Source: a virus (lineage: Duplodnaviria; Heunggongvirae; Uroviricota; Caudoviricetes). Taken from it: a stretch of 33,955 nucleotides of DNA. The notes beneath the pieces were generated by a model. It searched no databases. It had not been told where the DNA came from and saw only the letters and a program-made list of their open reading frames with translations. The translations under genes and the position numbers were made by a program. Below, one piece after another: positions 11,075-33,406 of this stretch. Numbering within the stretch: position 1 is the first letter of the stretch; each line of letters opens with the position of its first letter. The stretch is taken from positions 1 to 33,955 of IMG/VR virus record IMGVR_UViG_2778261417_000008. The stretch is one strand, 5' to 3'.

Positions 11075-11094
11075 AAAATTATTAGTGCAATTTT
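11075..11094 (-). promoter_or_regulatory. C1 repressor operator-like site (ATTGCACTAATAATTTT) upstream of the 11149 operon
   Basis: Close match to the P1 C1 operator consensus ATTGCTCTAATAAATTT. Confidence 0.6.
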
Positions 11095-11148
11095 GATTGT
11101 GAAATGTATCATTCTGCCCTTAAGTAGGTTCTTCACGAGGAAACAAAA

Positions 11149-11394
11149 TTGGCAGAACGTGTTGATGATGCAGAGCTGAGCATGAATCAGTTAGAAGCTC
11201 TCAAAGACATGGCCATCGATAACATCAGAAAGCAGGCACAGGTCGTGAGCCAGGTATTTACAGGGAAGTGTCGTTACTGCAATGAATCGATTGAATCAGG
11301 CATTTATTGTGACGCTGAATGTGCGCAATGGCACAGGGAAGAGCAGGCTGCAAAACAGCGTAAATATGGCATGCGACCGGCAGGATTTGACTGA
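11149..11394 (+). CDS. Small C4 zinc-ribbon protein (81 aa); possible DksA/TraR-like or Ogr-like transcription factor
   Basis: CRYC…x9…CDAEC motif; first gene after the operator-like site. Confidence 0.45.
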   Translation: MAERVDDAELSMNQLEALKDMAIDNIRKQAQVVSQVFTGKCRYCNESIESGIYCDAECAQWHREEQAAKQRKYGMRPAGFD

Positions 11395-11396
11395 TT

Positions 11397-11975
11397 ATGT
11401 TGCGCTTTACTGAGGAAGAGTTTCAGGCTTTTAGTGAGCGTCGAAATAAGGGGCGGTCCAGGCCAAAAACCAAAAAGGATCCATTCTTATCGCTTGCGCC
11501 GGTAAAAGAAGTTTCTCCACATGCGAAGGCACTTGCAGCACTGGCAAAGAACCCCGACCTGCGCGACGGAAATTGCGAGCACTTCGAGCAGGTTTTCATT
11601 TTTGATTACTTCGAACGCAAGCACCCTGACATCTATGAGCTGTTGCATGCAACGCCTAACGGAGGGAAACGTTCAAAAGCAACCGCCGGGAAAATGAAGG
11701 CTGAAGGGCAGAAAAAAGGTTATCCGGACATGAGTCTCGATAAAGCATGCGGTATTTATCACGGCATGCGAATTGAGCTTAAAGAACCAAATGGTAAAGC
11801 CCCGACGAAAGAGCAGATCGCCTGGATGCGCAGGCTTAGAGAGGAAGGTTACTACGTCGTTCTTGCGTATGGTGCAGAACAAGCGATAACCGCCATCCTG
11901 GAATACATGAGCCTTAAAAAGGGTGAGGCTATTGAGCATGTATTGAACGGTGACAAGTGGTTGTACGCTACGTGA
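11397..11975 (+). CDS. VRR-NUC-like nuclease domain protein (192 aa)
   Basis: …GYPDMSL…IELKEPNGKAPTKEQIAWMRRL…GYYVVLAYG… resembles the VRR-NUC / PD-(D/E)XK fold; start is 2 nt after the preceding stop. Confidence 0.55.
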   Translation: MLRFTEEEFQAFSERRNKGRSRPKTKKDPFLSLAPVKEVSPHAKALAALAKNPDLRDGNCEHFEQVFIFDYFERKHPDIYELLHATPNGGKRSKATAGKMKAEGQKKGYPDMSLDKACGIYHGMRIELKEPNGKAPTKEQIAWMRRLREEGYYVVLAYGAEQAITAILEYMSLKKGEAIEHVLNGDKWLYAT

Positions 11976-12171
11976 AATAATAAATTAATTAGTGCATATG
12001 TGCTCTTTGATATAGCGCACATTAACATCGGGAGAATAATCGTGTCATCCAAGGCTAATTATGAATCGCTGGCATCGATCATGCCGCGTAATGAACAGGA
12101 AGCAGATGCTGTAGTGGACCCGGTAATCGCTGAAATGAATGCTCGCCTGGAGGCTGAATTTGCAGCTGAGA

Positions 12172-12801
12172 ATGAACATACCACCCAGGGCGACTAGGAC
12201 TGTTTTTTGTGTCGGTAGCGGTCCGTCACTCACTCGTGAGGACTGTGCTGCTATAGAAAAAACTGGCTGTTCAATCATCGCGGTTAACAATTCCTGGCAG
12301 ATGTTCGATGACATTTATGCCTTATACGCCGGTGATTTGTCATGGTGGAAGCAATACGGATCCACCATACCGGGAGGGAGATTCCGCAAAGTGACAGCCA
12401 ACCTGGCGGCGGCGAAATCATTTTCGTTGGAGTACAGGCGATATTGTGGACCGGCTGAAGGGGTTAATAGCGGCGCGCAGGCTATCAGTCTGGCGGCTGA
12501 ATCAGGGGCTGAAGTAGTTGTATTAGTCGGCTATGACTGTTCTCTGCAAAACGGCCTTCATTGGCATGGAGCACACCCTCAAGCCCTACGGAATCCAACG
12601 CAGGTGTCTATTTCAAAATGGCAACAGCAGTTCCTGGATACCCGCAAAAAACACGCAGATTTACATATTTTGAATGCAAGTAGGAGCAGTGCAATTCAAT
12701 GTTTCCCAAGAATAAATTTAGAGGCAGTGATCGCGTTATTATCGTCGGCAGTGGCCCAAGCGCCGCAAACTTTGTTGCGCCGCGCGGAGTGCCGATTATA
12801 G
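12172..12801 (+). CDS. Hypothetical Rossmann-like protein (paralogue 1), GSGPS…IAVN motif
   Basis: Start inferred at the ATG at 12172 (the ORF track begins at 12139). Shares a VGSGPS…IIAVN…core with the next ORF. Confidence 0.5.
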   Translation: MNIPPRATRTVFCVGSGPSLTREDCAAIEKTGCSIIAVNNSWQMFDDIYALYAGDLSWWKQYGSTIPGGRFRKVTANLAAAKSFSLEYRRYCGPAEGVNSGAQAISLAAESGAEVVVLVGYDCSLQNGLHWHGAHPQALRNPTQVSISKWQQQFLDTRKKHADLHILNASRSSAIQCFPRINLEAVIALLSSAVAQAPQTLLRRAECRL

Positions 12802-13325
12802 CGGTCAATGGGGCCATCGACTGGCTGAACCGCGCTTCTTATTTTTTCACACTTGATCCATCGCCAGACAATATGCGGCGCGTTGGTCGTGGCCGCCGTC
12901 GCCGTGGTGTTTGTTATTGCATGGCACTACCCGATGTTAAAGAACGTGAAGTCAGAGACGGCGTTCTGTGCTTCCGTCGTGTGGCTGAACGTGGCATGGA
13001 GCCAAAAAATACGAATTCTCCCGAGTGGTGGGCGTGGCGCTGGTCCGCACATTTCGGACTTTGCGAAGATGAGAATGAAATTGCCAGCGGCAATAGTGCA
13101 TATGGCGCTCTGAACCTGGCTTTCCATATCGGATTCAAACATGTCGCCCTGGTGGGCGTTGACGCTACACAAGAACCACGCGTTCACTCCGACGGCACGC
13201 CAAAAAATCTAAGTCACCTGCCTTTGTTATTCCAGTCTGCGCGTGAACAGATTGACGTTGTTTCATGCGGGAAAATGGGAGGTATTCCGCAGATGACTCT
13301 TAAAGAATGGCTGAAGAATACATGA
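12699..13325 (+). CDS. Hypothetical Rossmann-like protein (paralogue 2), GSGPS…IAVN motif
   Basis: [29 protein letters not shown]; overlaps paralogue 1 by about 100 nt in another frame. Confidence 0.5.
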
Positions 13326-13999
13326 TGGCACCCACAATTTATCACCGTATCGACGGTACCAAATACAGGAATGTCTGGGTTGTTGGTGATCTGCATGGTT
13401 GCTACACCAGACTGATGTCCGAACTCCATCGTGTGGATTTTGACCCGGCGCAGGATTTACTGATATCGGTCGGCGACCTTATCGATCGCGGTACTGAAAA
13501 TGTCGAATGTCTGGAACTATTGCAGATGCCCTGGTTCAGAGCGGTCATGGGTAACCATGAGCGGCTGATGATTGATGCGTTAAGTCCAGATGGCAACGTG
13601 AATAACTGGCTAATGAATGGCGGACAATGGTTCTTCATGCTGGACACTGATCAGGAAATATTAGCCTGGGCGCTGGTGGAGTTGGTAAGACGACTGCCCT
13701 ATATCATTGAGTTGAACACCGGGCAAGAAACTATCGTTATAGCCCATGCCGACTATCCGGATAATGAATACCAATTCGGTAAGGAGGTGCCGCTTTTCAA
13801 CGTTGTCTGGGCGCGCGAGCGTATCAGTGATTCGATGGATGATATTGGTGGCGAAATTTCGGGCGCAGATCGTTTTATCTTTGGTCACACTCCGGTGAAA
13901 AGCCCGAAGACATTCTGGAATCAGCAGTATATCGACACTGGTGCCGTATTTTGCGGAAACCTGACATTGATGAAAGTGAAAGGTGATGGTGCAGCATGA
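13322..13999 (+). CDS. ppp: Ser/Thr protein phosphatase, lambda PPase-like metallophosphoesterase
   Basis: GDLHGC…GDLIDRG…GNHE motifs. P1 carries a gene called ppp; equivalence is inferred. Start is ambiguous (13307, 13322 or 13325). Confidence 0.75.
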
Positions 14000-14997
14000 A
14001 GATTGCTTTAGTTTTTCGCTCTGGTGGTGACTATAACGCTTCCGATGTGCAGTGGCTGGTTAATCAACTGCCAAAAGGCTATGAAATTATTTGCCTGACA
14101 GACCTGAAGCGTTTACATGTACCTGGCGTCAAAGTTGTCCCATTGATCAACCAGTGGCAAAAGTGCCGTGGCTGGTGGGCGAAAATAGAGTTGTTCCGAC
14201 CGGATATAACAGATGATCTGTTCTATCTGGATTTGGACACAGTTATTGCCGGTGATATACGCCCAATCCTTGAGAATCCACCAACCAGCTTCACCATGCT
14301 TAGGGATTTTTACCATCCACAATATCGTGGTAGCGGTGCCCTGTGGATACCAAATAGTGTAAAAGCGCATATCTGGAGTGCATTCTGGCAAGATCCGGAA
14401 GGTTGGGTTGCTCGTTGTGTTACTACTGAATGCTGGGGTGATCAGGGGTTTTTGCGGAAGGTTATGGGTGATGATACACCAGCATTTCAGGATCTGTATC
14501 CGGGATGGTTTGTAAGTTACAAGGCCGATGTTGTGGAACCTGGTTCGAAATATGCGAGCGCGCGTTACTCCAAGGGGAATGGGGCATTACCAAAAGACTG
14601 CCGAATAATCTTTTTCCACGGCAAACCGCGACCTCGCGAAGTGTCAGAGGATTGGCTTCCCCTTATCAGCTCGTTTTTTGAGCGAGAATCAGAATTATAT
14701 TGCTCTAATAATTCCATATTTTTAAAGCGTGATGTACACTCATCACGTTTTTTATTAGAGCAATCTACAGGGTGCACTATGTGGCCATTCCGACGGAAAT
14801 ATCACTACTGGCTGATCGCCTTTGTTACGCCGACCGGCGGTATCAGGCATGTCATCACCAGGTATCGCAACAAGAGACTCACCTTAGCCAGAATTTTACA
14901 GGCTGCCATAGGTGAGGGACTGGATACAAATTGCGTAGTCCTTCCTCCTTCATACTTAGGAAAAATGACCGAAGCACAAGCTAATACGGAACTTTGA
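13996..14997 (+). CDS. Hypothetical protein with a DxD (YLDLDTV) motif; possible glycosyltransferase
   Basis: 333-aa ORF, start overlaps the previous stop. DxD motif only; weak assignment. Confidence 0.4.
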
Positions 14998-14998
14998 A

Positions 14999-16261
14999 AT
15001 GAGCACTTCAGCACAAAACCAATCAATCGAAAATGTATCTATCCCTGATGTCCTGAATGCCGGTATCCCGGCCATTATCCAGAACATCCGGGCCGCGCAA
15101 CGCCGCGTTAGTTGTGATGACCTCACAGCACGTTTTTTTGATAATGCGGTTCAGTCAGCGGAGATGCTTCACGCACAGCTTATTGATGTTTATAACGCAG
15201 AAGCTGATAGCCATAACTCCCTGGTAGATGCAGCTGAAAATATGCAGTTGGATCTCGGTCTGAAGGGTAAAGAAATTGAAGAGCTTCAGCTGCAAATTGA
15301 ACATTTGAAACGCCAGCAACAGGACGCGATCGACGATGCGACGCATGACGCCAACCAGCGTGCTGATAATGCCGAACGTATAAGCATTGAGCTGGAAACA
15401 AAACTCAATGAAGTGACCGCGATGGTTGAACTGCGGAACTCACAGATTTCAACGCTAAAATCTCAATATAAAGAGATCATGAAACTTGATCCTTTTAACC
15501 TTGAGAAACGCTATAACAAAGCCAAAAGTGAGCGACAGGAACTGCGTAAGCAGGTCGCCGACCTTAACCAACAGCTCAAAAAGACTATTAAAGATGCAAG
15601 TGAGGCGCGCGTGGCATTTGCTAATAAAAAAGCAGAGGTTACCGCGCTGGTTAATGAGAATGCCAAATTTGCGACGCTCAAGAAGGAAATGTATGGCATT
15701 ACTGAGCGACGTTTCCCTGCAAGCAAACTTCATCCGACGTTAGGGCAAATCTCCTTCTTCCCGCGCCTCCTGGCTTATGGGATCTCATCGCCTAAAGAGT
15801 TCAATAACGAGCGTCCTTATATCGTTTCTAAGCTGGACTTTGCTTATCAGTTCTGCTGCGACATGGGCTATGCCATTGATATCCGAATCAACGAATGGTT
15901 GATGCCAAACTTCCAGCCGTTGGCCATTTTCCGCGAGTTCCAGCCGGAAGGTTGGGTAGAGTTCTTCCATGAATTGATCTGTAAAGAGATGGAAAGCCGC
16001 CGCCCGGAACTGGTCCGTCGAGTTGAGTGGGCGCAAGAGGTTATGTTGGCAGAGGCAGAGCTGCCGTTCGAACCGGAATTTATTGATGATCTGGCAGCTA
16101 AAGGGCTGCATACCCTGTTTGATGTGGTTACCCGCCGTCATGAGCAGTTGGTTGTCGAATTGGGTTTAGAGGAAACAGCGGCAAGAAGACTTCTCGATGT
16201 TTGCTATGCACGTAGCGATGCATGGGAAAAAGAGAACGGCGGCACTATTTACGTTCGCTGA
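14999..16261 (+). CDS. Hypothetical protein with an N-terminal coiled-coil (420 aa)
   Basis: Heptad-rich Q/E/K/L segment at residues about 60-220; C-terminal domain unrecognised. Confidence 0.45.
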   Translation: MSTSAQNQSIENVSIPDVLNAGIPAIIQNIRAAQRRVSCDDLTARFFDNAVQSAEMLHAQLIDVYNAEADSHNSLVDAAENMQLDLGLKGKEIEELQLQIEHLKRQQQDAIDDATHDANQRADNAERISIELETKLNEVTAMVELRNSQISTLKSQYKEIMKLDPFNLEKRYNKAKSERQELRKQVADLNQQLKKTIKDASEARVAFANKKAEVTALVNENAKFATLKKEMYGITERRFPASKLHPTLGQISFFPRLLAYGISSPKEFNNERPYIVSKLDFAYQFCCDMGYAIDIRINEWLMPNFQPLAIFREFQPEGWVEFFHELICKEMESRRPELVRRVEWAQEVMLAEAELPFEPEFIDDLAAKGLHTLFDVVTRRHEQLVVELGLEETAARRLLDVCYARSDAWEKENGGTIYVR

Positions 16262-16333
16262 AAGTTACAGTGTCACTTTTGATGCTGGTGGAGTGCGCCC
16301 ACCAGCATTTTTTTCGTCCAATGAGGAGGGCAT

Positions 16334-16840
16334 TTGAGTATTTTCAATAAACACGCACACCAGGAACGTCCGTATATCGTCATAGTTGATATTGATGGAA
16401 CAATATCAGAGGCAACTGAAGACAGACTGCATTTGCTTCCGCCACCAGGTAAAGGTGCATTAACAAAGGACTGGAACGAGTTTAATCTCGCCTGTGACAC
16501 TGATACTCCCATAACTCCAGTTATTGATATTGTGCGCCAGTTATTTAACGTTTACACGGTCTGGTTTGTAACCGGACGCTGTGAGATCGCAAGGGATAAA
16601 ACACGAGCCTGGCTGCGGAAGTACGTAACAAACGGGGCTGAGCCTTTGCTATCTATGCGTCCTGCCACCGATGACAGAAATGACGGCCCAGCAAAGATTG
16701 ATCTCCTTAAGAAAATTGGTCTAAGTAAAATCGCGTTCGCGCTGGAAGATAAGATTGAAGTGGCGCGTGTTTTCAGGAGGCACGGCGTGCTTACGTTAAT
16801 GGTCAGGGAGTATGAAAACGCGCTTCTCCATCAACAATAA
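16334..16840 (+). CDS. HAD-superfamily phosphatase-like protein (168 aa)
   Basis: VIVDIDGTIS (DxDGT) motif I near the N-terminus; possibly the P1 pap-like gene. Confidence 0.55.
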   Translation: MSIFNKHAHQERPYIVIVDIDGTISEATEDRLHLLPPPGKGALTKDWNEFNLACDTDTPITPVIDIVRQLFNVYTVWFVTGRCEIARDKTRAWLRKYVTNGAEPLLSMRPATDDRNDGPAKIDLLKKIGLSKIAFALEDKIEVARVFRRHGVLTLMVREYENALLHQQ

Positions 16841-16856
16841 TTGCTCTAATAAATAT
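16840..16856 (+). promoter_or_regulatory. C1 operator (ATTGCTCTAATAAATAT)
   Basis: Near-perfect match to the P1 C1 operator consensus. Confidence 0.7.
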
Positions 16857-16938
16857 TTATTTTTAAAACAGAGAAAGTGAAAATAAAAACATGCCGCAAG
16901 GCGCGGCATGTATCCAATCAATCACAGGAGCTGAAAAT

Positions 16939-17025
16939 ATGAACACGGCATTCAAAATCATTATGGCCGCGATCTATTTCTGGCTGTTCTCTATCACTTT
17001 TGGCGATATCGTCGCACATGGGTAA
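16939..17025 (+). CDS. Possible small hydrophobic peptide (28 aa, MNTAFKIIMAAIYFWLFSITFGDIVAHG)
   Basis: AGGAG 8 nt upstream of the ATG; flanked by hairpins at 16891-16911 and 17063-17090. Speculative. Confidence 0.25.
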   Translation: MNTAFKIIMAAIYFWLFSITFGDIVAHG

Positions 17026-17104
17026 GGGGAGTATATTAGCCATTTGGAACCCCACGGTCTCTTGCGGGTTTAATTAAGAACCCGCAAGAAAAACACGAAT
17101 TGGG

Positions 17105-20100
17105 CTATATTTTTCCGCCTACGCCTTTAAACTTCTCAATAAACGAGACGATTTTCTGGAAAACTGCCTGTTTTTTCGTTTTATATTGCGGATTTAACGG
17201 ACTAAGTTTTGGTAATGTTTCGTTTAATTCTGTGCCATTTTCGGTGGCATATTCGCGTTTTAAAGACGTGCGAATATAGCGTTTTGCTGCATCTTCATTG
17301 AGATTTTCTTCTTTTATCAATGCTTCTGCTTCACGTTGCTGTTCGCGTTGAGCAAACGTAAAGAATGCGTCAATGATGCTGGCTTTGTCCGGTAAATCAT
17401 CCAGGTTCGTTTGCTGAATAAAATCGACCACCAGGCCCTCTTTAGCACGGTTTCCCAGGCTTGAACGAATTAAGCGTTTGACCTCTTCGATCATTTCGCC
17501 CTTGCCTTTATTTTGTCTGTTGTGTTCGAAAATCAGTCCAAGGATATAATCCAGGTTTATTTCCTGAGACTTCAGCAAATCGACCTCAAAAACTACGTCA
17601 TCCCAGTCAGTGGTTGATTTCTCTTTTTTCTCAGCTTCTTTCTCACGGCGCTGCCAGTCGCGAATATCGTTATAGGCAGAACGATAATCCTGAATCTTGC
17701 GATCAGCAGGGAGACGAATTGTTTGCAATTCAGCGAACTTTTCATCATCCACATAATGTTCTGCTTTGAATTTTTCTACCGCAACAGGATCGCTAAGATC
17801 GATTTGTTGCAGGGCTTTTAGCGTGGCAAATTCATCATAGTTTTGCAGGATGTTCTCGGCACGCAGGTATTCGCCAAACAGTTTAACGAAGTCTTTCTTC
17901 TCTTTTTCACTTTCAATACTGGTAGGGTCAGGGAACCGTTGTTCCAGTTCTGAAACTACTGTCATGAAGCCGCGTTTAGCTTCACCTGTAGCAGCATCAG
18001 TAAAGCCTTCCATATACTCTGTATAACTCTTTTCTAACACCACATTTTTGGTGTTTTTGTCACCAAACAGCGTTATGGCATCAATAGTTGAGCGTTCCAG
18101 ATCCCGGAAAGTGACGATATTACCGAAGGTTTTAGTGGCGTCATAAATGCGGTTGGTGCGGGAAAATGCCTGCATCAGGCCGTGATAACGTAAGTTTTTA
18201 TCGACGAATAGCGTGTTCAATGTTGGAGCATCGAAGCCGGTTAAGAACATCCCCACGACAATTAGCAGATCGATATCCTGATTTTTAACCCGCTGGGCTA
18301 AATCACGATAGTAGTTCTGAAAACCGTTACTGTCGGTGCTAAAGTTAGTTTTAAAATGGCTGTTATATTCACGAATTGCAGCGTCCAGAAACTCTTTAGC
18401 ACTGCTGTCCATTGCGCTGGTATCAAAAGTTTCATCGGAAATTTCACCAATGGCATTTTGTTCTTCATTGGCGGCAAAGGAGAAGATTGTCGCAATACGC
18501 AGCGGTTTATAGGTAGCCGATTTATTAGCGGCTTCTTCTTGTAACCGTTTAAACGTCGCATAATAGGCTTTCGCGGCATCCACGCTGCTCACTGCCAACA
18601 TAGCATTAAAACCTTTTGAGCCAGGGAAGGTACGGTGGGTTTTCTGGCGGAAATTATTCAGAATATATTGCGTGATTTCCTGAATACGCATGGGATGAAG
18701 AAACGCCTGCTGATTTTCAGCCGCACTCAGTTTTTTCTCGTCAGTTTCTGTCTCTAAAGACTTAAACTGTGGCCGCACATCGTTGTAGTCCACCTTGAAT
18801 TTGAGCACTTTTTCGTCACGAATCGCATCGGTAATTACATACGAATGCAATTCACGACCAAATACGCTGGCGGTTGTTTCTGAGCCTAAGGCGTTTTCCG
18901 GGAAAATAGGGGTGCCGGTAAAACCAAACTGATAATAGCGTTTGAATTTCTTCTTCAGGTTTTTCTGCGCTTCTCCAAACTGGCTGCGGTGGCATTCATC
19001 AAATATAAACACCACTTGCTGATTATATACAGGCAGATCGCTTTCTGCTTTCATCAGGTTATTGAGTTTCTGAATAGTAGTGACGATAATTTTGTTATCG
19101 TCCTTATCCAGATTTCGTTTAAGGCCTGCGGTATTTTCCGAGCCGTTGACGCTGTCTGGCGAAAAACGCTGATATTCCTTCATGGTCTGGTAATCGAGGT
19201 CTTTCCTGTCGACCACAAAGAAGACTTTATCAATAAAGTCCAGCTCTGTTGCCAGACGCGCGGCTTTAAAGCTGGTGAGGGTTTTACCAGAACCGGTAGT
19301 GTGCCAGATATACCCACCGCTTTCCGGTTTTGACCAGTTCTTCGCTGTAAAGGAACTCTTAATTTTCCACAGAATGCGCTCGGTGGCGGCAATCTGGTAC
19401 GGTCGCATTACCAGTAGTGTCTGACTGCTGTCAAAAACGCTGTAGTTCACCAGAACATTAAGCAGAGTATGTTTCTGGAAAAAGGTGGCGGTAAAGTCTT
19501 TGAGGTCTTTAATCAGCGTATTGTCTGATTTCGCCCAGTTCATGGTGAAGTCAAAACTGTTTTTATCGCGCTTTGTCGTGTTGGCAAAATAACGGGTATC
19601 AGTGCCGTTGGAAATGACGAACAGCTGCAGATACTTAAACAGGGAATTTTCGCTGTTAAAACTCTCTTTACTGTAACGATGTATCTGGTTGAAAGCCTCA
19701 CGAATCGCCACGCCGCGTTTTTTCAGTTCGATTTGTACCAGCGGTAAGCCATTAACCAGGATAGTTACGTCATAACGGTTAGCGTGAGAACCCGCCTGTT
19801 CAAACTGCTGGATAATCTGCACCTTATTGCGCATGAGATTCTTTTTATCTATCAAATAGATGTTCTCAAGACGCTCGTCATCAAAAATAAAGTCGCAAAT
19901 ATAGTCGATATGGATTTTACGGGTCTTATCCAGAATGCCATCGCTCGGGTTATCCAGATACTGCTCCGTGAAACGCCGCCACTCGCTGTCATTAAACACC
20001 ACACCATTGAGGTTCTGAAGCTGTTCCCGAACATTGGCCAGCATCGCCGACTGTGATTTTACGGATATAAATTCATAGCCCTGATTCCGTAGGTCCTGTA

Positions 20101-20221
20101 TCAGTTCGCGTTCCAGGTCCGATTCGCTCTGGTAGCTGTCGCCTGTTGGCTCAGCTTTGATGTACTTATCAAGAACGATAAAGTTATTGGATTCAGCAAT
20201 GGTGTGTGTCTGATGAGTCAT
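17105..20221 (-). CDS. hsdR: Type I restriction enzyme R subunit (HsdR), type IC / EcoR124-like
   Basis: 1038 aa; helicase motifs ([22 protein letters not shown]); length matches EcoR124 HsdR as I recall it. Confidence 0.9.
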
Positions 20222-20342
20222 AGCGCATCCTTTGTGCCGTCTGGCAAGGGCCGGAAGGGGGGTAATGGTGACTTCCGGCGCGTAAAAAATAGTCTATATA
20301 CTGACCGGGTGTTAAGGTGGTCCGATCGGTAGCAATGATCAA

Positions 20343-23249: not shown

Positions 23250-23288
23250 GAAGTTTATAATTGTGTACACATAACGAGTACATGAGGT
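23250..23288 (+). promoter_or_regulatory. phd-doc promoter with palindromic operator sites
   Basis: TATAAT at 23256-23261 followed by tgtGTACAcataacgaGTACatg immediately upstream of phd. Confidence 0.6.
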
Positions 23289-23292
23289 ATTT

Positions 23293-23894: not shown

Positions 23895-23898
23895 ATTA

Positions 23899-24078: not shown

Positions 24079-24105
24079 AGCCCAATCAGTGATGAAAGGT
24101 GTGAT

Positions 24106-25149
24106 GTGAAAGCCGTAATTACTCCCTTTGTACAAAAAGAGCTTGGCGTCGCCACATTCAAAGTGGATCAGGAAGTCAGAAAGCTGGTGGAGGCTGGCCG
24201 TAAATTTATTATGGAGCCGGTGCCGCGTGAGTTAATCGAGCACATGGACGACGGCCTCGTTGTTTCCGAGCAAACTATGGCAACAAATGAGGCGTTGCAG
24301 CCGTTTTTTAACAGCGATGAACTGTTTCGCCGTATTGGTGGAATTGACGCGCTGGTGGCGTGGTTGCGCAGGAAAGAGGGGCAATGCCAGGCCGCAGATC
24401 GTAGCTGGTGTGACAACCATATTGTCCACGCAGAACGAGACAATAGCGCGGTGTTGTTGTGCTGGCATCACGATAACCATTACCGGATGCGTGGTTTTAA
24501 TGAGCTGAAAGAAACGCTGCATAATAATCGCGTTAACTGGATACTGGATGTCGCCCGTCAGGAAATGGGGCTTTCAGATGGCCATGATTTAAGTATTCAG
24601 GAACTGTGCTGGTGGGCTTTCATGCGCAACATGATGCACCTGATGCCGGAAGAAGTTTGCCGTATATCAATAAATAAGATGAAAGCCGCAACGCAGGATA
24701 GCGGACCTCTGAAAGAGGCGGATATTCGCCCGTATGACGATCGCGCTACAGCATATGTTCAGATGATGGAAGAACGCGCCGCGCCGATGCGTGCAAAAGT
24801 ATGCCCTGTGGATGTTGACTCCGACCCTGGCATGGCGCATTTCAAAATACCAAAACTGCAATCGCTAAAATTACCTGAGTACATGGACTTTGTTGCTTCC
24901 CGTCCATGCTGTGGGTGTGGAGCGGCGGGAGCTGGCGCTCACATTACGCCTTATATCGTTCGTCATAGTCGATTATGCGCGCATGACATTTACGCAATTC
25001 CTCTGTGCCAGTCATGCCAGCGTGATATTGAGCGTGACCGCGATAATTGGGAGAAGACGCACGGTAGGCTGGCGATGCATCAACGATTGTTCTTTGATTA
25101 CGCGCTTGGAGTCGGCGCTATCACAAGTCACTCGTCGAGCGTTAGATAA
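24106..25149 (+). CDS. Hypothetical phage protein with Cys/His-rich C-terminal motif (possible zinc-binding or HNH-like)
   Basis: 347 aa; CWHHDNHY and [12 protein letters not shown]…C.H…CQSCQ clusters. Confidence 0.5.
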
Positions 25150-25150: not shown

Positions 25151-25167
25151 ATTGCTCTAATGTATTG
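25151..25167 (+). promoter_or_regulatory. C1 operator-like site (ATTGCTCTAATGTATTG)
   Basis: Matches the C1 operator consensus in 13 of 17 positions; lies between the 347-aa ORF and the packaging genes. Confidence 0.55.
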
Positions 25168-25237
25168 CCATTTCTTTAATCGAGGGTATTATATTCCACG
25201 TTGATTAGTTGACATGGGCTAATCAGTAGGTGACAGG

Positions 25238-25435
25238 ATGTTACTTAACTGGCAGGGACGCCACTTCATGGAAATAAATCACTCACGAATAACATCGTAC
25301 GAGATTGCGGATTACATGATCCGCACTAAATCTCTTCTATCAGCGAAAGAACTCGCAGCAATTCTTGAAAAGGAATACCCGCATCTGGATGTCGATAAGC
25401 GCGATGTTTATCTGCGCTTACGAACGAAAGCGTGA
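25238..25435 (+). CDS. Putative terminase small-subunit-like N-terminal segment (65-aa ORF)
   Basis: Helix-turn-helix-like small ORF upstream of the large terminase; overlaps the next ORF in a different frame. Confidence 0.35.
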
Positions 25436-25820
25436 AAATAACTGGTCAGTGCTGGAAGCAGCTGAATTCATCGAGGCGCATGGCGGAAAAGTGCCGCCCC
25501 TGATGCTGGAGCAAATCAAAGCCGATCTGCGTGCTCCTAAGACCAATACCGATGATGAGGAAAGGCAAACAGCCGTCGGTGGCCCTTCTCTTGAAGATCT
25601 GGACAAAGTTGCGCGAGAACGGGCCGCCAACCGCCGCGCCGATGCCGCATTGTGGATTGAGCAGCGTAGGGAAGAAATCGCCGATATCGTTGATACAGGC
25701 GGTTATGGAGATGTTGATACTGAAGGTGTATCAAACGACCCATGGCTGGAACAAGACCTGGACGAAGACGAGGAGGAAGACGAAGAAGTTACCCGCAAGC
25801 TATACGGGGATGATGATTAA
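25365..25820 (+). CDS. Putative terminase small-subunit-like C-terminal segment with acidic tail
   Basis: Acidic tail (…[11 protein letters not shown]…); stop overlaps the start of the large terminase (ATGATTAATGG). True start may be the GTG at 25458. Confidence 0.4.
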
Positions 25821-27304
25821 TGGCCAGAAGTTGCGTAACGGATCCACGTTGGCGCGAGCTGGTGGCGCTATATCGTTATGACTGGATTGCTGCCGCTGAT
25901 GTTTTGTTCGGCAAAACACCTACCTGGCAGCAGGATCTGATTATTGAGTCTGTGCAGGAACAGGGTAGCAAGACATCTGTTTCGTCTGGTCACGGTACCG
26001 GGAAATCAGACATGACTTCTATCATGATCATGTTGTTCATAATCATGTATCCCGGTGCCCGCGCCATTATCGTTGCGAACAAAATTCAGCAGGTAATGAC
26101 CGGTATATTCAAGTACATCAAGATAAACTGGGCTACTGCCACCAGCCGTTTTCCATGGCTTGCTGATTATTTTGTTCTGACAGAAACCGCTTTCTATGAG
26201 GTTACTGGTAAAGGTGTATGGACTGTAGTACCGAAGGGCTTTCGTCTGGGAAGTGAAGAAGCTCTCGCCGGTGAACACGCAGATCATCTTCTGTATATTA
26301 TCGATGAAGCCTCCGGTGTCAGTGATAGAGCTTTCGGTATCATCACCGGTGCTCTTACCGGACAGGATAACCGCATCTTATTGCTGTCACAGCCTACACG
26401 CCCAAGCGGCTATTTCTACGATACACACCATAAACTGGCCAAGCGTCCTGGTAACCCTGATGGCGTTTATACGGCGATCACGCTTAACAGTGAGGAATCA
26501 CCGTTGGTAACGCCAGCATTTATCAAAATGAAGCTGGCGGAGTACGGCGGGCGTGATAACCCTATGTACATGATTAAGGTACGCGGCCTATTCCCTAAAT
26601 CACAGGATGGCTTCCTTCTTGGACGTGATGAGGTTGAACGTGCAACGCGGCGGAAAGTCAAGATTGCCAAAGGATGGGGCTGGCTTGCATGTGTGGACGT
26701 TGCTGGTGGTACGGGACGGGATAAGTCCGTTATCAATATCATGATGGTGTCCGGCCAGCGAAATAAACGCCGTGTAATCAACTATCGAATGCTGGAATAC
26801 ACAGACGTTACAGAAACGCAGCTTGCCGCCAAAATTTTCGCAGAATGTAATCCTGAGCGATTCCCAAATATCACCATAGCGATAGACGGCGATGGCCTGG
26901 GTAAAGCAACGGCGGATCTGATGTACGAGTATTATGGTATTACCGTACAGCGTATACGCTGGGGTAAAAAGATGCATAGCCGTGAAGATAAGAGCCTGTA
27001 CTTTGATAAACGTGCTTATGCCAACGTTCAAGCCGCAGAGGCCGTAAAATCTGGTCGTATGAGACTGGATAAGGGTAATGAAACTATTGAGGAAGCGTCG
27101 AAAATCCCTGTAGGGATTAACTCCGCAGGTCAATGGAAGGTGATGAGTAAGGAGGATATGAAGAAAAAACTCAACCTGCACTCACCAGACCATTGGGATA
27201 CATATTGTTTCGCTATGCTGGCGGATTATGTTCCCCAGGATGAAGTGCTTAGCGTCGAAGACGAAGCGCAGGTTGATGAAGCTCTGGCATGGCTTAATGA
27301 ATGA
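25820..27304 (+). CDS. Terminase large subunit (PacB-like), 494 aa
   Basis: Walker A SGHGTGKS and Walker [12 protein letters not shown]; position just upstream of the immunity regions as for P1 pacB. Confidence 0.7.
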
Positions 27305-27307
27305 ATA

Positions 27308-27324
27308 TTTGCTCTAATAAATTG
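27308..27324 (+). promoter_or_regulatory. C1 operator (Op51-like) in front of the c4-icd-ant operon
   Basis: TTTGCTCTAATAAATTG. Confidence 0.65.
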
Positions 27325-27504
27325 TGTTTTTTAACTACCGATGTTACATTGAGCCTGACCTCTTGCGCCTTGAGGCATTTTCGGTTTATGCTTATCAGGC
27401 ACCTCATTAAAACGGGTGCCGGGATTGGCCTCCCGCTTAAGTCTAAGGCGATACAGACGCCGCTCGCGTCTTTTTTTTGTATCGGCGTACACGCACACCT
27501 CTAC

Positions 27505-27580
27505 AATGGTGGGCTGTATGGGGCTACCTTCGGGTAGGCTGGTTACCTTGGACGCCAGTAAGGCCAACTCCGTACAGTCC
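27505..27580 (+). ncRNA. c4: Candidate c4 antisense RNA (immI repressor RNA); boundaries approximate
   Basis: tRNA-like closing stem (ggctgtatgg / ccgtacagtcc) followed by ACCGCC. Internal CCUUGGACG (27545-27553) is complementary, with one G-U, to CGUCUAAGG at the icd ribosome-binding site (27624-27632) and to an upstream copy at 27441-27449. Confidence 0.45.
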
Positions 27581-27643
27581 ACCGCCAGCAAGATTGGTCT
27601 CTTCTGCGGTGGTTACATACCAACGTCTAAGGAGGCTGCCAAT

Positions 27644-27865
27644 ATGGCTACTATCCCTACCCCAACTCATCCTGAATTTATCTGGCGCTTTTACTCCTGC
27701 CAAAAACGTCACTATCACTTCGTTATTGCACCGACAGAAGATGAGGCCCGCTCTCAGCTTCCTGACGCCCCATGTATTTTCTCTGCCCGTTTTTCCACTG
27801 ATTCACGCAATTCTCTCAGTTACTGGTGCCTCCCTGTTAACGCTTCTGCTCAGGAGGGACTATGA
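27644..27865 (+). CDS. icd: Icd (interference with cell division), 73 aa, translationally coupled to ant
   Basis: ATG at 27644 with AAGGAGG upstream; stop overlaps the ant start (ATGA). Confidence 0.6.
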   Translation: MATIPTPTHPEFIWRFYSCQKRHYHFVIAPTEDEARSQLPDAPCIFSARFSTDSRNSLSYWCLPVNASAQEGL

Positions 27866-28980
27866 GAACGTCATTAGTCACCCGTGAAGAGATGATCGAG
27901 GCAATTGAACAGCACACTGCCTGTATCAGTACCAGGGATATACCAGGCGTTATTGCCAACTACTTCATGATCACCAAACAACTTTACCGGAGAAAGGACA
28001 AGAACGCGGTTCACCGTATCCTGTTGTCTGATATCCGCGAATACCTGCTCGAACAGGGTCATCTGAATTACGCAACCGCCGCAGCCGAAGCACGCAAGGA
28101 GGCACACAGAATGAAAGCAACTAACGTTAAATCAGAAAAAATTCATGCACCTTCAGTTCAAGAATCGGAGCTGGTGGTTGTTCAGAATCAGTCTGATGAA
28201 ATTCCCGTTCTGGAATGGCAGGGAGTGCGTGTAGTGACAACCGAGACTCTTGCTAGAGGGTATGGGACAGAAACAATCCGTATTCGCCAAAATCATCATG
28301 AGAACAAAGTACGCTTTGTTGAAGGGAAGCACTTTTTCAAAGTTGAAGGAGAATCATTGCGCGAGTTGAAGCACAGAGTAGCTTTAAACTACTCTGTAAA
28401 AATTGCTCGCAATGTTCGCTCACTCACCCTCTGGACAGAACGCGGCGCAGCCCGCCACGCTAAAATGCTCGAAACCGATCAGGCATGGGCATTCTTTGAA
28501 AAACTGGAAGACAGCTACTTCCGACAAAAAGAACAGCAACCGATCGCAATCCCCCAGACGCTTCCTGAAGCCCTACGCCTGGCTGCCGAACTGGCTGAAC
28601 AAAAGCAACTTCTGGAACAGAAAGCCCACCAGCTAAATCAGCAGCTGGTGGCCGCCGCTCCTAAAGTCGATTTTGCCGACCGGGTATCAGTAGCTAAAGG
28701 GATCCTGATTGGGAATTTTGCAAAGGTTGTTGGACTTAAACAAAACGCGCTGTTTGTCTGGTTACGGGAGAACGGCATCCTGATAGCGTCCGGTGGACGT
28801 AAAAATGTGCCGTTCCAGCAGTACATCAACGCGGGGTATTTCACGGTGAAAGAAGTGGTGCTGGATGATGAAGATGGCTACCAGATACGGTTGACGCCTC
28901 AATTAACGGGTAAAGGCCAGCAGTGGTTGACGCGTAAACTGCTCGATGCTGGCTTGTTAAAACCGGTGGCGGCTGAATAA
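27862..28980 (+). CDS. ant: Antirepressor Ant (Ant1, 372 aa; an in-frame internal start near codon 84 would give Ant2)
   Basis: ORF6N/Bro-N-like N-terminal region and KilA-C/ANT-type C-terminal domain; sizes fit the reported 42 and 32 kDa P1 Ant1/Ant2. Confidence 0.7.
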   Translation: MRTSLVTREEMIEAIEQHTACISTRDIPGVIANYFMITKQLYRRKDKNAVHRILLSDIREYLLEQGHLNYATAAAEARKEAHRMKATNVKSEKIHAPSVQESELVVVQNQSDEIPVLEWQGVRVVTTETLARGYGTETIRIRQNHHENKVRFVEGKHFFKVEGESLRELKHRVALNYSVKIARNVRSLTLWTERGAARHAKMLETDQAWAFFEKLEDSYFRQKEQQPIAIPQTLPEALRLAAELAEQKQLLEQKAHQLNQQLVAAAPKVDFADRVSVAKGILIGNFAKVVGLKQNALFVWLRENGILIASGGRKNVPFQQYINAGYFTVKEVVLDDEDGYQIRLTPQLTGKGQQWLTRKLLDAGLLKPVAAE

Positions 28981-29009: not shown

Positions 29010-29012
29010 AAT

Positions 29013-29864
29013 TTATTGCGCGCTTTCGGGGTTGTCGTTTACTGGCTGCCCCTTCTTGGTTTTACGGCTGCGCGTAACTGATGCGGCTGACTTAACCTTT
29101 TTCTCTTCGCGAGTGATGGCAATTTGTTTTTTTACATTTTCAATATCTGCCAGGCGATATATTTTTGCTTGCGGCCAGCGGTCGCAGATGATCGGTTCTA
29201 TGGAGTCATAAAGGCTAAATTTTGCTTTTTCGAATTCACCGTTGATGATAATTCCATCACGGAGAGTTTCATCGCAGATAAACACGCCACACAGTGGCAC
29301 ATGGTAACTAACTGATTTACCATCATTGTAGTTAGGGCTACTGGAAATGTAGTGGACGCGCAGCATTGTTTCGCTAAAGCCGTGTACGCGCATACGGAAT
29401 TTTTCATCCTCCGGGTACTGCTTCATTAGCTCTTTTGTTGCTTCCAGGTTCTCTATGTATTTCGCACTGTGCTCATTGATCCCCGCGCTTTTTTGGATGC
29501 GAATGTCCTTATCAATCAGATGAATAATGCGGCCAGCGGTCATGTTGACGCTGTTCACAGCTTCTGTCTGATAAGTTGTAACCTTACGCACACCGCGAAG
29601 GATGTTAGGCACTGGATATAAAATAGTCTTTGGGATATTGAGGTCTGGGTACTGTTCCAGTTCCCGCGCCATTAAAGTCCATTTATCAATTTCAGCCTGA
29701 ATGCTGTCAGTTTCTTTGAACGGTAGAACGACAACCGGGCGTACAGGACGACCGTCGCTGGCTGTATCAACGTGTTGGGCGCGTGCAACAGCTTTTTTTA
29801 GAAAGAGATCCCTGAAGCTGACGAACTCCTGGTACAGTTGTTCGCCGTAGACATAATTTATCAT
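29013..29864 (-). CDS. c1: C1 repressor of lysogeny (283 aa)
   Basis: Translation MINYVYGEQLYQEFVSFRDLFLKKAVARAQHVD… matches P1 C1 from memory. Confidence 0.95.
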   Translation of the reverse strand: MINYVYGEQLYQEFVSFRDLFLKKAVARAQHVDTASDGRPVRPVVVLPFKETDSIQAEIDKWTLMARELEQYPDLNIPKTILYPVPNILRGVRKVTTYQTEAVNSVNMTAGRIIHLIDKDIRIQKSAGINEHSAKYIENLEATKELMKQYPEDEKFRMRVHGFSETMLRVHYISSSPNYNDGKSVSYHVPLCGVFICDETLRDGIIINGEFEKAKFSLYDSIEPIICDRWPQAKIYRLADIENVKKQIAITREEKKVKSAASVTRSRKTKKGQPVNDNPESAQ

Positions 29865-29957
29865 TGATCCTCCTCCAGAATTGACATGGTCAATAACGCC
29901 CGGCTGAGAAAACCGGTCATTACTGACCTATATTATAGAGGGATCAAACAAAAATAA

Positions 29958-29976
29958 TAGATTTATTAGTGCATTT
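29958..29976 (-). promoter_or_regulatory. C1 operator (Op99-type) between coi and c1
   Basis: Reverse complement reads ATGCACTAATAAAT. Confidence 0.55.
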
Positions 29977-30184
29977 ATTGTGAGTCTAACTGGTTAGTTG
30001 CCATGAGATATTCGATTGTGTCAGTGAGGTCATCCAGGTCGTCTTGGGTGATGCGGTACTCCTGATTGGATATCTTTGAGTAGTGTTCAGCAATGGCGCG
30101 GGCAGCGTCGGTTTCGGCAGGGTCTACAGATAAAGCGTTAGAGCAATGTCTAACGTCGTCGATGGTTGGTGGAATGAAAGCCAT
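29975..30184 (-). CDS. coi: Coi (C1 inactivator), 69 aa
   Basis: 69-aa ORF immediately upstream of c1 on the same strand, as in P1 immC. Confidence 0.8.
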   Translation of the reverse strand: MAFIPPTIDDVRHCSNALSVDPAETDAARAIAEHYSKISNQEYRITQDDLDDLTDTIEYLMATNQLDSQ

Positions 30185-30423
30185 AATTATGCCTCACTGT
30201 ATTGACAACACAGAGCCTGAAGCTCTGACCTACTGTTTCACCCATGATCCATGCTGGGGTAATCTAACAACATTGCGCTGTGTGTAAGATGAGCAATGCA
30301 TAGCTGTAATGCCGTTGTATAAGGTTTCCCTGTTTGCTCATTTCCTTCTGAGCCGCTCTACAACGCTGAAGACACATTAAATAGTGAATCCAAAGTCGTA
30401 TTACGAAACGGCGGCAAAACTAT

Positions 30424-30439
30424 AATTTATTAGAGCAAT
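30424..30439 (-). promoter_or_regulatory. C1 operator (reverse complement ATTGCTCTAATAAATT)
   Basis: Consensus match. Confidence 0.65.
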
Positions 30440-30505
30440 TGTCAAACAACTATGAAAAACAATCCAGTTTTTGGCTGGTGGAGTGGGATTTTTTTCTCAA
30501 AATTT

Positions 30506-30522
30506 ATTGCTCTAATAATTCT
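30506..30522 (+). promoter_or_regulatory. C1 operator (ATTGCTCTAATAATTCT)
   Basis: Consensus match. Confidence 0.65.
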
Positions 30523-30565
30523 TGATTTTTATGCGCAGCTGGACGTAAACTCCTCTTCGGACCTA

Positions 30566-30599
30566 ATAACTTCGTATAGCATACATTATACGAAGTTAT
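30566..30599 (-). other. loxP: loxP site (34 bp): 13-bp inverted repeats around an 8-bp spacer (GCATACAT on the plus strand, canonical ATGTATGC on the minus)
   Basis: Exact ATAACTTCGTATA-GCATACAT-TATACGAAGTTAT. Confidence 0.97.
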
Positions 30600-32049: not shown

Positions 32050-32066
32050 CCATTAACGCGTAAATT

Positions 32067-32083
32067 ATTGCTCTAATTCTTTG
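32067..32083 (+). promoter_or_regulatory. C1 operator (ATTGCTCTAATTCTTTG)
   Basis: Consensus-like site downstream of cre. Confidence 0.55.
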
Positions 32084-32099
32084 ATATTTATGGTGACAT

Positions 32100-32411
32100 A
32101 TGAGAAAGGATTTCAACATCGACGGAAAATATGTAGTGCTGTCTGTAAGCACTAATATTCAGTCGCCAGCCGTCATTGTCACCGTAAAGTTGAGCGATAG
32201 GATGCCTGATATCGACTCGATATCTGTTGCGTTCCCCGTTAAAAGCATGCGGAGTGCTGAACATTTTGTGATGAATGCAACGGAGGAGGAAGCGCGGCGC
32301 GGGCTTACTAGAGTGATGGCGGAATTTGGCGAACTCCTGGGTAAGGTAAACAATGCCCTTTCAATCAGTTCAGCAAGGTCCAAAGCGTTAACAGCTTCCA
32401 TGATGAAATAA
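32100..32411 (+). CDS. Small cre-adjacent protein (103 aa); P1 cra/c8-region equivalent
   Basis: ORF with an upstream operator; assignment by position only. Confidence 0.45.
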   Translation: MRKDFNIDGKYVVLSVSTNIQSPAVIVTVKLSDRMPDIDSISVAFPVKSMRSAEHFVMNATEEEARRGLTRVMAEFGELLGKVNNALSISSARSKALTASMMK

Positions 32412-32437
32412 AAAAAAAGCCTGGCAAGGAGCCAGGC
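32409..32437 (-). terminator. Rho-independent terminator oriented for minus-strand transcription
   Basis: Minus strand reads GCCTGGC-tcctt-GCCAGGC followed by T9. Confidence 0.5.
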
Positions 32438-32543
32438 TGCACAAAAGAGCGGGTTTGTATTCCGCATCCAATCAATCAAGAAGGAGTATAGCACACAGGT
32501 ACTGAAGTAAAAAAATGTGATTCGCGATAAAAAAATACCTACC

Positions 32544-32560
32544 ATTGCTCTAATTGATTG
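32544..32560 (+). promoter_or_regulatory. C1 operator (Op2-like) upstream of ref
   Basis: ATTGCTCTAATTGATTG. Confidence 0.65.
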
Positions 32561-32657
32561 ATATAATTTAACCGCAGTTTTTGTCAACTACGAAGACGTT
32601 GCTATTACTACACTCCTTGACATCATTGGCGGCCATTAGGCCGCTTTTTTTTGCCAT

Positions 32658-33218
32658 ATGAAAACAATCGAACAAAAACTTGAACAGCGCCGCGAGTGGC
32701 AGAAGGCAGCCAGAGAACGAGCGATCGCTCGGCAACGGGAAAAGTTGGCTGACCCCGCCTGGCGAGAATCGCAATATCAGAAAATGCGGGATTCTATCGA
32801 CCGCCGTATCGCTAAACAGAAAGAGCGCCCACCAGCCAGCAAAACGCGGAAAAGTGCGGTAAAAATAAAATCTCGTGGCTTGAAGGGGCGAACACCGACG
32901 GCGGAGGAACGGACCATCGCCAATGCTCTTGGCACTCTCCCCTGCATTGCCTGCTACATGCATGGAGTAATATCTGAAGAGGTGTCTCTGCACCATATCT
33001 CCGGTCGTACCGCGCAGGGTTGTCACAAAAAGCAATTGCCCCTTTGTAGATGGCACCACCAGCATGCAGCACCGGCTGAAGTAAGAGAAAAATACCCCTG
33101 GCTGGTCCCCGTTCATGCCGATGGTGTGGTTGGAGGCAAGAAAGAATTCACCTTGCTGAACAAGTCAGAGATGGAATTGCTGGCTGACGCCTATGAGATG
33201 GCAAACATCATGCACTAA
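32658..33218 (+). CDS. ref: Ref (recombination enhancement function), HNH-type endonuclease, 186 aa
   Basis: Length 186 aa and an HNH-like cluster (…CIACYMHGV…LHHISG…CRWHHQH…); position after cre as in P1. Confidence 0.88.
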   Translation: MKTIEQKLEQRREWQKAARERAIARQREKLADPAWRESQYQKMRDSIDRRIAKQKERPPASKTRKSAVKIKSRGLKGRTPTAEERTIANALGTLPCIACYMHGVISEEVSLHHISGRTAQGCHKKQLPLCRWHHQHAAPAEVREKYPWLVPVHADGVVGGKKEFTLLNKSEMELLADAYEMANIMH

Positions 33219-33406
33219 TAAATATATTATTTTTAATCTGAAATAATTGACAACTGACAAGTGACTTCAGTCAGAATCATCACATGCCCGGTACGGATGG
33301 ATCCCTTTTCAAATATTCCATGGACGGCACAGTCTGAGTACCGGGCGCTACCTTCAGTTGTATTGCTAAGCCGCCGCTGGTGGCTTTTCTTTTTGTAGGG
33401 GGAGCT

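Follow-up and report, generated by a model that had tools for sequence, protein, structure and literature searches.

How far does the operator set of a single repressor extend over a plasmid prophage, and do the sequence variants within such a set carry a regulatory meaning? These questions are raised by a stretch of viral DNA of 33,955 nt (IMG/VR record IMGVR_UViG_2778261417_000008, positions 1 to 33,955; the whole stretch is called the window), which megablast assigned to the P1 family of plasmid prophages (Punavirus). The original prediction for this DNA listed eleven sites matching the asymmetric 17-bp operator of the repressor C1, split them into two sequence families that might differ in affinity or in regulation, and remarked that some of the sites follow gene ends. 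All eleven were found, each within 0-3 nt of the position first assigned to it, and each fits the 17-bp operator of C1. Judged by sequence, the sites are very probably the operators through which a P1-like plasmid prophage is controlled by its repressor C1. Such a dispersed network of C1 operators is in itself textbook P1 biology and already known, C1 having been described as binding 22 operators with the same asymmetric consensus, widely dispersed over P1 (PMC8546580).

The element carries a repressor gene of its own, c1 (29013-29864, minus strand, 283 aa), whose product is 99.3% identical to P1 C1.100 and 100% identical to C1 of RCS47. P1, P7, and RCS47 are the close relatives over the phage parts of the window, with 92-98% identity. 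Four blocks with 83-98% identity together align with P1: window 10642-17029 with P1 78095-84482, 23217-25420 with 87970-90173, 25405-27302 with 91308-93204, and 29014-30582 with 93232-94800. Beyond 30582, the window passes the lox origin and continues into cra, cre, c8, ref, and mat. The sites in the window total 15, both halves of the bivalent operator Oc1ab included. Thirteen of them (Op82, Op83, Op86a/b, Op88, Op94, Op99a-e, Op2a, and Op2b) are positional orthologues of protein_bind features annotated as 'phage repressor C1' in P1 or P7 (AF234172 or AF503408); the P7 annotation uses other names for the equivalent sites, and the P1 GenBank record holds 20 monovalent C1 operator features. Only the sites at 27308 and 32067 have no counterpart in the P1 operator catalogue. 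This orthology, together with the c1 gene in the same element, bears out the proposed identity of the sites as C1 operators dispersed over a P1-type genome.

A position-weight-matrix scan had been proposed as the check on the sites, and an independent matrix was built for it. Because circularity had to be avoided, the matrix was limited to the seven P1 operators outside the span homologous to the window (Op21, Op51, Op53, Op55, Op68, Op72a, and Op72b). It returned 13 window sites of at least 14 bits, far above the 0.48 expected by shuffling (maximum of 4 in 300 dinucleotide shuffles), and a clear score gap set these strong sites apart from all others. The consensus ATTGCTCTAATAAATTT, in which T8, A9, and A10 are invariant and G4, C5, C7, and T11 near-invariant, was matched 10 times with at most three mismatches (0.19 expected), and the exact 10-mer TTGCTCTAAT occurred 9 times versus 0.13 expected. 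Both core variants were enriched, the T-type core TGCTCTAAT with 9 occurrences versus 0.38 expected and the A-type core TGCACTAAT with 4 versus 0.32, which places the second of the predicted families above background frequency. The matrix scan revealed no operators above noise in positions 1-11000 (rep/par region and insertion sequence (IS)) or 17000-25000 (hsd genes). A sequence-only Infernal profile made from 20 annotated P1 operators, which was also used together with pattern counts on the loci of relatives, recovered the same window sites. Applied to the whole 94.8-kb P1 genome, the profile found 18 annotated operators and only one extra site, a degenerate one before c8, therefore its false-positive rate is close to zero. 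A weaker match inside pap, at 16715-16731, was rejected as noise, since it scored 13.9 bits with the seven-site matrix, only 9.2 bits with a 20-site matrix, and was not found by the Infernal profile.

In the left part of the phage region, Op82 (P1 O26; ATTGCACTAATAATTTT; 11075-11091, minus strand; 19.8 bits) lies in the divergent control region of gene 26 and pmgL and has A at position 6 with no 3' extension. Op83 (Oppp; TATGCACTAATTAATTT; 11982-11998, minus strand), an A-type site followed by ATTATTT, is placed 7 nt past the pmgM stop and upstream of pmgN. Op86a (OpmgRa, in P7 Op(sht a); ATTGCTCTAATAATTCC) and Op86b (OpmgRb, in P7 Op(sht b); ATTGCTCTAATAAAAAA) occupy 14699-14715 on the plus strand and 14748-14764 on the minus strand, respectively. 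The pmgQ (hdmD) stop codon, which just precedes Op86a in P1 and P7, is absent from the window (13996-14997), so that one open reading frame (ORF) of 333 codons spans Op86a and Op86b and is fused in frame to pmgR. Op88 (OpmgT; ATTGCTCTAATAAATAT; 16840-16856, plus strand) begins with the last base of the pap stop codon; downstream of it, pmgT is replaced in the window by the convergent hsdR. Op94 (Olpa; ATTGCTCTAATGTATTG; 25151-25167, plus strand) follows the pdcB stop by 2 nt, and the site TTTGCTCTAATAAATTG (27308-27324, plus strand), a paralogue of Oc4/Op51 with no P1 counterpart at this position, follows the pacB stop by 4 nt.

The c1 promoter is occupied by the bivalent operator Oc1ab/Op99ab (29948-29975, minus strand), by orthology two inverted 17-bp sites overlapping by 6 bp. 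Its strong half Oc1a (AATGCACTAATAAATCT; 29959-29975, minus strand) is A-type and carries the ATTATTT extension, and the weak inverted half Oc1b (ACAAAAATAATAGATTT) is located at 29948-29964 on the plus strand. Oc1c/Op99c (ATTGCTCTAACGCTTTA; 30131-30147, minus strand) is found inside coi, the C1 inactivator gene of the immC switch (29975-30184, minus strand), and is a weak match (14.5 bits with the 20-site matrix); it sits in a perfect 7-bp inverted repeat at 30136-30155 (CGTTAGAcattgcTCTAACG). Oc1d/Op99d (ATTGCTCTAATAAATTA; 30423-30439, minus strand) is placed at the P1coi promoter and Oc1e/Op99e (ATTGCTCTAATAATTCT; 30506-30522, plus strand) just before P4cre and lox. Further on, the candidate operator ATTGCTCTAATTCTTTG (32067-32083, plus strand; 15.5 to 18.7 bits) stands 18 nt past the cre stop, with the start codon of c8 following after 17 nt, Op2a (Oref; ATTGCTCTAATTGATTG; 32544-32560, plus strand) falls in the spacer of the P2ref promoter, and Op2b (Omat; CATGCACTAATAAATAT; 33209-33225, plus strand), which is A-type and extended by ATTATTT, covers the stop codon of ref upstream of mat. 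The pentamer CTAAT is kept by 14 sites; Oc1c reads CTAAC and Oc1b is degenerate, both as in P1. The predicted list was thus accurate in each of its eleven entries but incomplete, as it omitted 14699-14715 (plus strand), 14748-14764 (minus strand), 30131-30147 (minus strand), and the weak half at 29948-29964 (plus strand).

The remark that sites follow gene ends and not only promoters turned out to be a false contrast. The sites at 16840, 25151, and 33210 are each located 40-115 nt upstream of the next co-oriented gene, and their P1 counterparts overlap or adjoin the annotated promoters P2pmgT, Plpa, and Pmat. In P1, TTGCTC of Op88 is the annotated -35 box of P2pmgT, the 3' end of Op94 overlaps the -35 box of Plpa, and Op2b lies 21 nt upstream of Pmat. 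Plpa was found again in the window (TTGCCA-16-TATTAT, 25165-25192), its -35 box being overlapped by the 3' end of the operator at 25151-25167. Altogether, eight of the 15 sites start at most 20 nt after an upstream stop or span it (11982, 14699 with respect to the P1/P7 stop, 16840, 25151, 27308, 29959, 32067, and 33209), and all eight precede the next same-strand gene by 17-115 nt. The genome is tightly packed, hence the operators adjoin the preceding stops. On this analysis, the gene-end sites are best read as promoter operators at the operon boundaries of a compact genome.

Two other accounts of the sites were considered. Chance similarity in A/T-rich intergenic DNA could be suspected from the 3' half of the motif, which is A/T-rich and low in information; the shuffle controls given above (13 sites versus 0.48, 10 consensus matches versus 0.19, and 9 copies of TTGCTCTAAT versus 0.13) refute it, as do the orthology of the sites to annotated operators and the conservation of the operator core, in three lineages, as an island within a cre-c8 spacer that has otherwise diverged, so that this account may be practically dismissed. 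Alternatively, the main part played by the stop-abutting sites might be that of roadblocks or insulators of transcription, where bound C1 would halt read-through from the upstream operon. The eight sites adjoining or spanning stops would fit such a role, and so would the pre-c8 site, which lacks a convincing own promoter and is preceded by the predicted Pc8. We regard it as very unlikely to be the main role, given that the P1 counterpart of each site overlaps or adjoins an annotated promoter of the downstream operon and that Plpa was found again over 25151, although the roadblock and promoter-operator roles are not mutually exclusive.

Some observations weigh against reading the sites as the promoter operators of a working C1 circuit. 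A strict consensus promoter scan detected only Plpa among the operator-linked promoters and left the rest below threshold, therefore the promoter overlap rests on homology to P1 predictions; we infer both C1 binding in this element and promoter overlap at most sites, with the promoters taken from the P1 annotation. What the analysis shows directly is that the sites match the operator sequence, exceed chance expectation, are orthologous to annotated P1 operators, share their element with the repressor gene, and are conserved in sister lineages. The element has, moreover, lost 1.13 kb relative to P1 (90173 to 91308), the junction being a 16-bp stretch (25405-25420) that aligns to both sides and is nearly unique among 668 matching plasmids. 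The deletion cuts lpa off after about 61 codons; LPpac (a late promoter), the cleavage site pac, and some 260 codons from the start of pacA are lost as well. From its gene content, an element with a truncated lpa and no pac would be expected to fail both in switching on late genes and in packaging DNA; hence Op94 would guard a dead gene, and part of the C1 circuit would be vestigial in the window. The operator set is inherited and not necessarily all in use in this element.

The sorting of the sites into two families was then compared with the P1 annotation. In P1, five operators have A at position 6, i.e., Op2b (CATGCACTAATAAATAT), Op72b (ATTACACTAATAAATTT), Op82 (ATTGCACTAATAATTTT), Op83 (CATGCACTAATTAATTT), and Op99a (AATGCACTAATAAATCT), and the second predicted family consists of exactly the four of them that fall in the window (Op82, Op83, Op99a, and Op2b). 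Two sequence types can indeed be distinguished, but they do not amount to a new class, the four members being annotated P1 operators with the same A6. The other family, defined as the ATTGCTCTAATAAAT type, is less uniform than its name implied, since three of its members (25151, 32067, and 32544) have only the 11-nt core ATTGCTCTAAT in common. Among natural contigs, the A-type 24-mer of Op99a was exact in 118 of the 119 IMG/VR contigs in which the site is matched when any base is allowed at position 6, the remaining one having T; A was present at position 6 of Op2b in 43 of 44 loci. The complete natural relative NZ_CP027133.1 has the same five A-type sites as P1. Near-fixation of A6 is weak evidence because these sequences are all >95% identical. 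The rare natural alleles of position 6, Op2b without A in one IMG/VR contig (L018:8049-8070) and Op99a with T in another (L119:392-411), would lend themselves as natural controls when A and T are compared.

A search for related loci based on C1 gave only identical relatives, and the divergent lineages were reached by tblastn against phage and plasmid collections. Two sister lineages were analyzed, Cronobacter phage JK004 (C1 77% identical) and Salmonella plasmid pCVMN1543 (C1 86% identical to the JK004 protein). The operator motif is the same in both, and none of their approximately 23 sites has A at position 6. For the orthologues of Op99a, the sequences are AATGCTCTAATAAATCT and AGTGCTCTAATAAATCT, in each case with ATTT and not ATTA behind them. 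Most simply read, the comparison points to a position 6 at which degeneracy is tolerated and whose A state is derived in the P1/P7 lineage.

Three of the A-type sites share a longer motif, NATGCACTAATWAATNTATTATTT, resembling the annotated bivalent operator Op99ab. With flanks, Op83 reads TATGCACTAATTAATTTattatttcacg, Op99a AATGCACTAATAAATCTattatttttgt, and Op2b CATGCACTAATAAATATattatttttaa; common to all three are A at positions 2 and 6 and the 3' extension ATTATTT. The extension was present at 3 of 3 xATGCAC sites versus 0 of 19 other non-orthologous sites (Fisher p=6.5e-4). Its first four bases are the reverse complement of TAAT and stand where an inverted half-site overlapping by 6 bp would place its core. 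The candidate degenerate inverted partner half of Op83 would thus occupy 11971-11987 (plus strand) and that of Op2b 33220-33236 (minus strand). Other origins of the extension were considered and rejected. The -22 boxes of Lpa-dependent late promoters read TAGTCATTT, AAGTTACTT, and ATGTGACTT, no match to the IHF consensus WATCAANNNNTTR was seen when the extension was compared with it by eye, and a recent duplication of the three extended sites is not compatible with their flanks, which are unrelated beyond about 25 nt.

These data bear on two further interpretations. According to the one, A-type sites would form a functionally distinct class, with systematically different C1 affinity or separately regulated promoters, kept by selection. 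It may draw on the company of A6 with A2 and ATTATTT in three of the four window sites, on the near-fixation of the A allele at Op99a and Op2b, and on the occurrence of 5 A-type sites among 19-20 in P1-lineage genomes versus 0 of about 23 in the sister lineages. We nevertheless consider it unlikely: the orthologous Op99a is T-type in both sister lineages, near-fixation among such similar sequences is expected from common ancestry alone, Op82 has A6 without the extension, and no obvious regulatory theme unites c1, pmgN-ppp, mat, and pmgL. The P1 record, too, lists all of them as ordinary C1 operators and states that Lxc enhances C1 binding to all its operators.

The other interpretation takes Op83, Op99a, and Op2b as bivalent operators of the Op99ab type, in which a strong half and a degenerate inverted half overlapping it by 6 bp would be bound by two C1 molecules, or by C1 and Lxc, and would behave unlike monovalent sites. 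All three sites read NATGCACTAATWAATNTATTATTT, TAAT falls at positions 8-11 of the inverted partner half exactly as in the annotated Oc1ab and Obanab, ATTA follows five of the six P1 A6 sites (Oc1b counted) versus one of the 14 T-type sites (p=0.002), and the extension is retained at the Op83 orthologue of pCVMN1543. Several facts speak against it. The partner halves of Op83 and Op2b match at only 11 of 17 positions, mostly in the self-complementary centre and TAAT, and lack the GC(T/A)C core. In pCVMN1543, ATTATTT goes with T6 both at the Op83 orthologue (ATTATTCTAATAAATATattatttt, extension ATTATTTT kept) and at the pre-c8 site (ATTGCTCTAATAATTTTattattttt), therefore the link between A and the extension is not general; the Op99a orthologues of the sister lineages, with their ATTT, do not have the ATTA extension at all. 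The extension is, besides, A/T-rich and embedded in A/T-rich intergenic DNA, and Oppp and Omat are annotated as monovalent in P1. The bivalent interpretation is accordingly a tentative one, which we hold possible rather than probable. From the layout of the sequence we infer that Op83 and Op2b would be Op99ab-like, pseudo-bivalent operators; the simplest reading of ATTATTT is that it constitutes a separate recurrent feature of some operators.

The two sites that are not in the P1 catalogue were analyzed separately. At the place corresponding to 32067, P1 (1486-1502 of locus L002) and P7 (186-202 of locus L135) have no annotated operator and read ATTGCTATAATTATTTG, where the near-invariant C7 is changed to A and a perfect extended -10 motif TGCTATAAT arises (TATAAT versus TCTAAT). 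The intact core is the majority allele in IMG/VR contigs, 56 versus 5. Strong operators occupy the same pre-c8 place in JK004 and pCVMN1543, with the core conserved in an otherwise diverged spacer. A C1 operator controlling c8 in natural P1 relatives is the probable function of 32067. The operator core TGCTCTAAT is one substitution away from the extended -10 motif (TGnTATAAT), and a single C-to-A change may turn a C1 operator into a strong promoter.

The site at 27308 starts exactly where the P1 homology breaks. It scored 21.5 bits, aligns with P1 Oc4/Op51, and overlaps the -35 box of a promoter like P1 P2c4 (former P51a), TTGTGT-17-TACATT. It heads an insert of 1.7 kb (27305-28980) between pacB and c1, which is a paralogue of the P1 immI operon. 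Along the plus strand, the insert encodes an isrK-like RNA (27399-27476; Rfam, 60.8 bits), a C4 antisense RNA (RF01695; 27502-27589; 75.9 bits versus a gathering score of 45), icd (27644-27865; protein 80% identical to P1 Icd), and ant (27862-28980; 56% identical to P1 Ant1, with Pfam ANT and ORF6N domains). In the sequence ATGA (27862-27865), the stop of icd overlaps the start of ant, an arrangement of translational coupling, and the C4 loop at 27546-27554 (CCTTGGACG) pairs with the icd ribosome-binding site at 27624-27632 (CGTCTAAGG) over 9 bp including one G-U. The cassette was found in 290 of about 720 P1-like plasmids (about 40%). The complete relative NZ_CP027133.1 has the same 27308-type site and both the cassette and the canonical immI (L136:26528-28199, L137:24540-26130), therefore the pacB-c1 cassette is an additional paralogous copy. 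Each immI copy of this relative has its own C1 operator, and the C4 recognition loops of the two copies differ. The insertion was reported before as "two short orfs and ant between pacB and c1", with neither operator nor RNA (PMC6906374).

Taken together, the preferred reading of the sites as C1 operators leads to the following scheme. C1 produced from 29013-29864 would bind asymmetric 17-bp sites on or beside the sigma-70 promoters from which many separate operons, early and lytic, are transcribed, so that one repressor would silence the whole lytic programme via dispersed single sites. The repressed units would comprise pmgL, pmgN-ppp, pmgR-pmgS, the Op88 promoter, lpa, coi and c1 itself, cre, ref, and mat; the extra c4-icd-ant antirepressor cassette and c8 would be two further putative targets in this element. 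With such tight packing, each promoter-operator would start within a few bases of the stop of the previous gene. T or A at position 6 would represent one degenerate motif, of which the A-type is presumably derived and almost fixed in the P1/P7 lineage. At Op83, Op99a, and Op2b, A6 is combined with A2 and ATTATTT, and this extension might provide TAAT as the core of a second half-site, inverted and overlapping like that of Op99ab.

The remainder of the window shows that its backbone differs from that of P1. The repA/parAB region (1-7066) is joined directly to a 3'-truncated gene 26 by an insert made up of an IS and a group II intron (7065-10645), with the group II intron domain RF00029 at 7580-7666 and the IS3-type ALIL frameshift pseudoknot RF01497 at 10193-10309, both on the minus strand; compared with P1, the backbone has thus undergone rearrangement. 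Between Op88 and phd/doc, where P1 has pmgT to humD, the window carries a type I restriction-modification operon of hsdR, hsdS, and hsdM (17105-23116, minus strand), which replaces pmgT-humD also in the relatives vB_EcoM-673R5 and NZ_CP027133.1. Between Op88 and this operon, a strong hairpin (16889-16911) is followed by a hydrophobic ORF of 28 codons (16939-17025; MNTAFKIIMAAIYFWLFSITFGDIVAHG) with an AGGAG ribosome-binding site. The ORF is convergent with hsdR, whose stop is at 17105. The stretch 16889-17025 is also present, unannotated, in P1, the record of which notes that it is common to the DNA downstream of hsdR in the R124/3 and EcoDXXI plasmids.

A wider reading may be put forward, though as a speculation that we regard as rather doubtful: the C1 regulon of natural P1-like elements may differ from that of textbook P1 by a conserved pre-c8 operator, by a second C1-gated antirepressor operon beside c1 with a C4 RNA of its own specificity, and by the lineage-specific NATGCACTAATWAATNTATTATTT at c1, pmgN, and mat, which would bind C1 bivalently and so respond differently to the levels of C1, Lxc, or Coi. 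If it is true, c8 would be C1-controlled in nature and C1-independent in the laboratory phages P1 and P7. The likely pre-c8 operator and the second antirepressor cassette could change the induction, mutual exclusion, or coexistence of these elements. P1-like phage-plasmids commonly carry genes for resistance and defence in Enterobacteriaceae, and a simple operator profile that recovers the whole C1 regulon of such an element with almost no false positives is useful for annotation. The unannotated operators and the extended motif are modest additions that leave the known principle unchanged.

The closest known counterparts are the C1 operators of P1 and P7 (Op2a/b, 21, 51, 53, 55, 68, 72a/b, 82, 83, 86a/b, 88, 94, and 99a-e; AF234172, AF503408), which have the same 17-bp asymmetric motif and serve a repressor 99.3% identical to that of the window. 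The positions of 13 of the 15 sites and the A-for-T exchange at Op82, Op83, Op99a, and Op2b are the same; the window differs in the extra sites 27308 and 32067, in Op88 not preceding pmgT, in Op94 preceding a truncated lpa, and in position 1 of Op83, which is T in the window and C in P1. As for the bivalent operators of P1, Op99ab (Oc1ab) and Op72ab (Obanab), an Oc1ab orthologue is present in the window, and Op83 and Op2b share the layout of a strong A-type half followed by ATTA; unlike the former, these two are annotated as monovalent in P1, and their putative second halves are as degenerate as Op99b. The P1 immI operon (Op51, c4 RNA, icd, and ant1/2) and the window cassette have the same parts in the same order, with a C1 operator over the first promoter. 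P1 immI is located between sim and kilA, whereas the cassette is located between pacB and c1; the latter has an isrK-like element in place of the upstream a1/b1 element and an ORF6N domain in exchange for the middle part of Ant, and its C4 recognition loop is unlike that of P1 and unlike that of the canonical copy in the same plasmid family. In immunity of the lambda type (CI, OL/OR), as with C1, a single repressor keeps lysogeny by occluding early promoters and autoregulates its own synthesis. The lambda operators, however, are symmetric, dimer-bound, and clustered at two loci, whereas those of C1 are asymmetric, mostly single, and spread over about 20 promoters.

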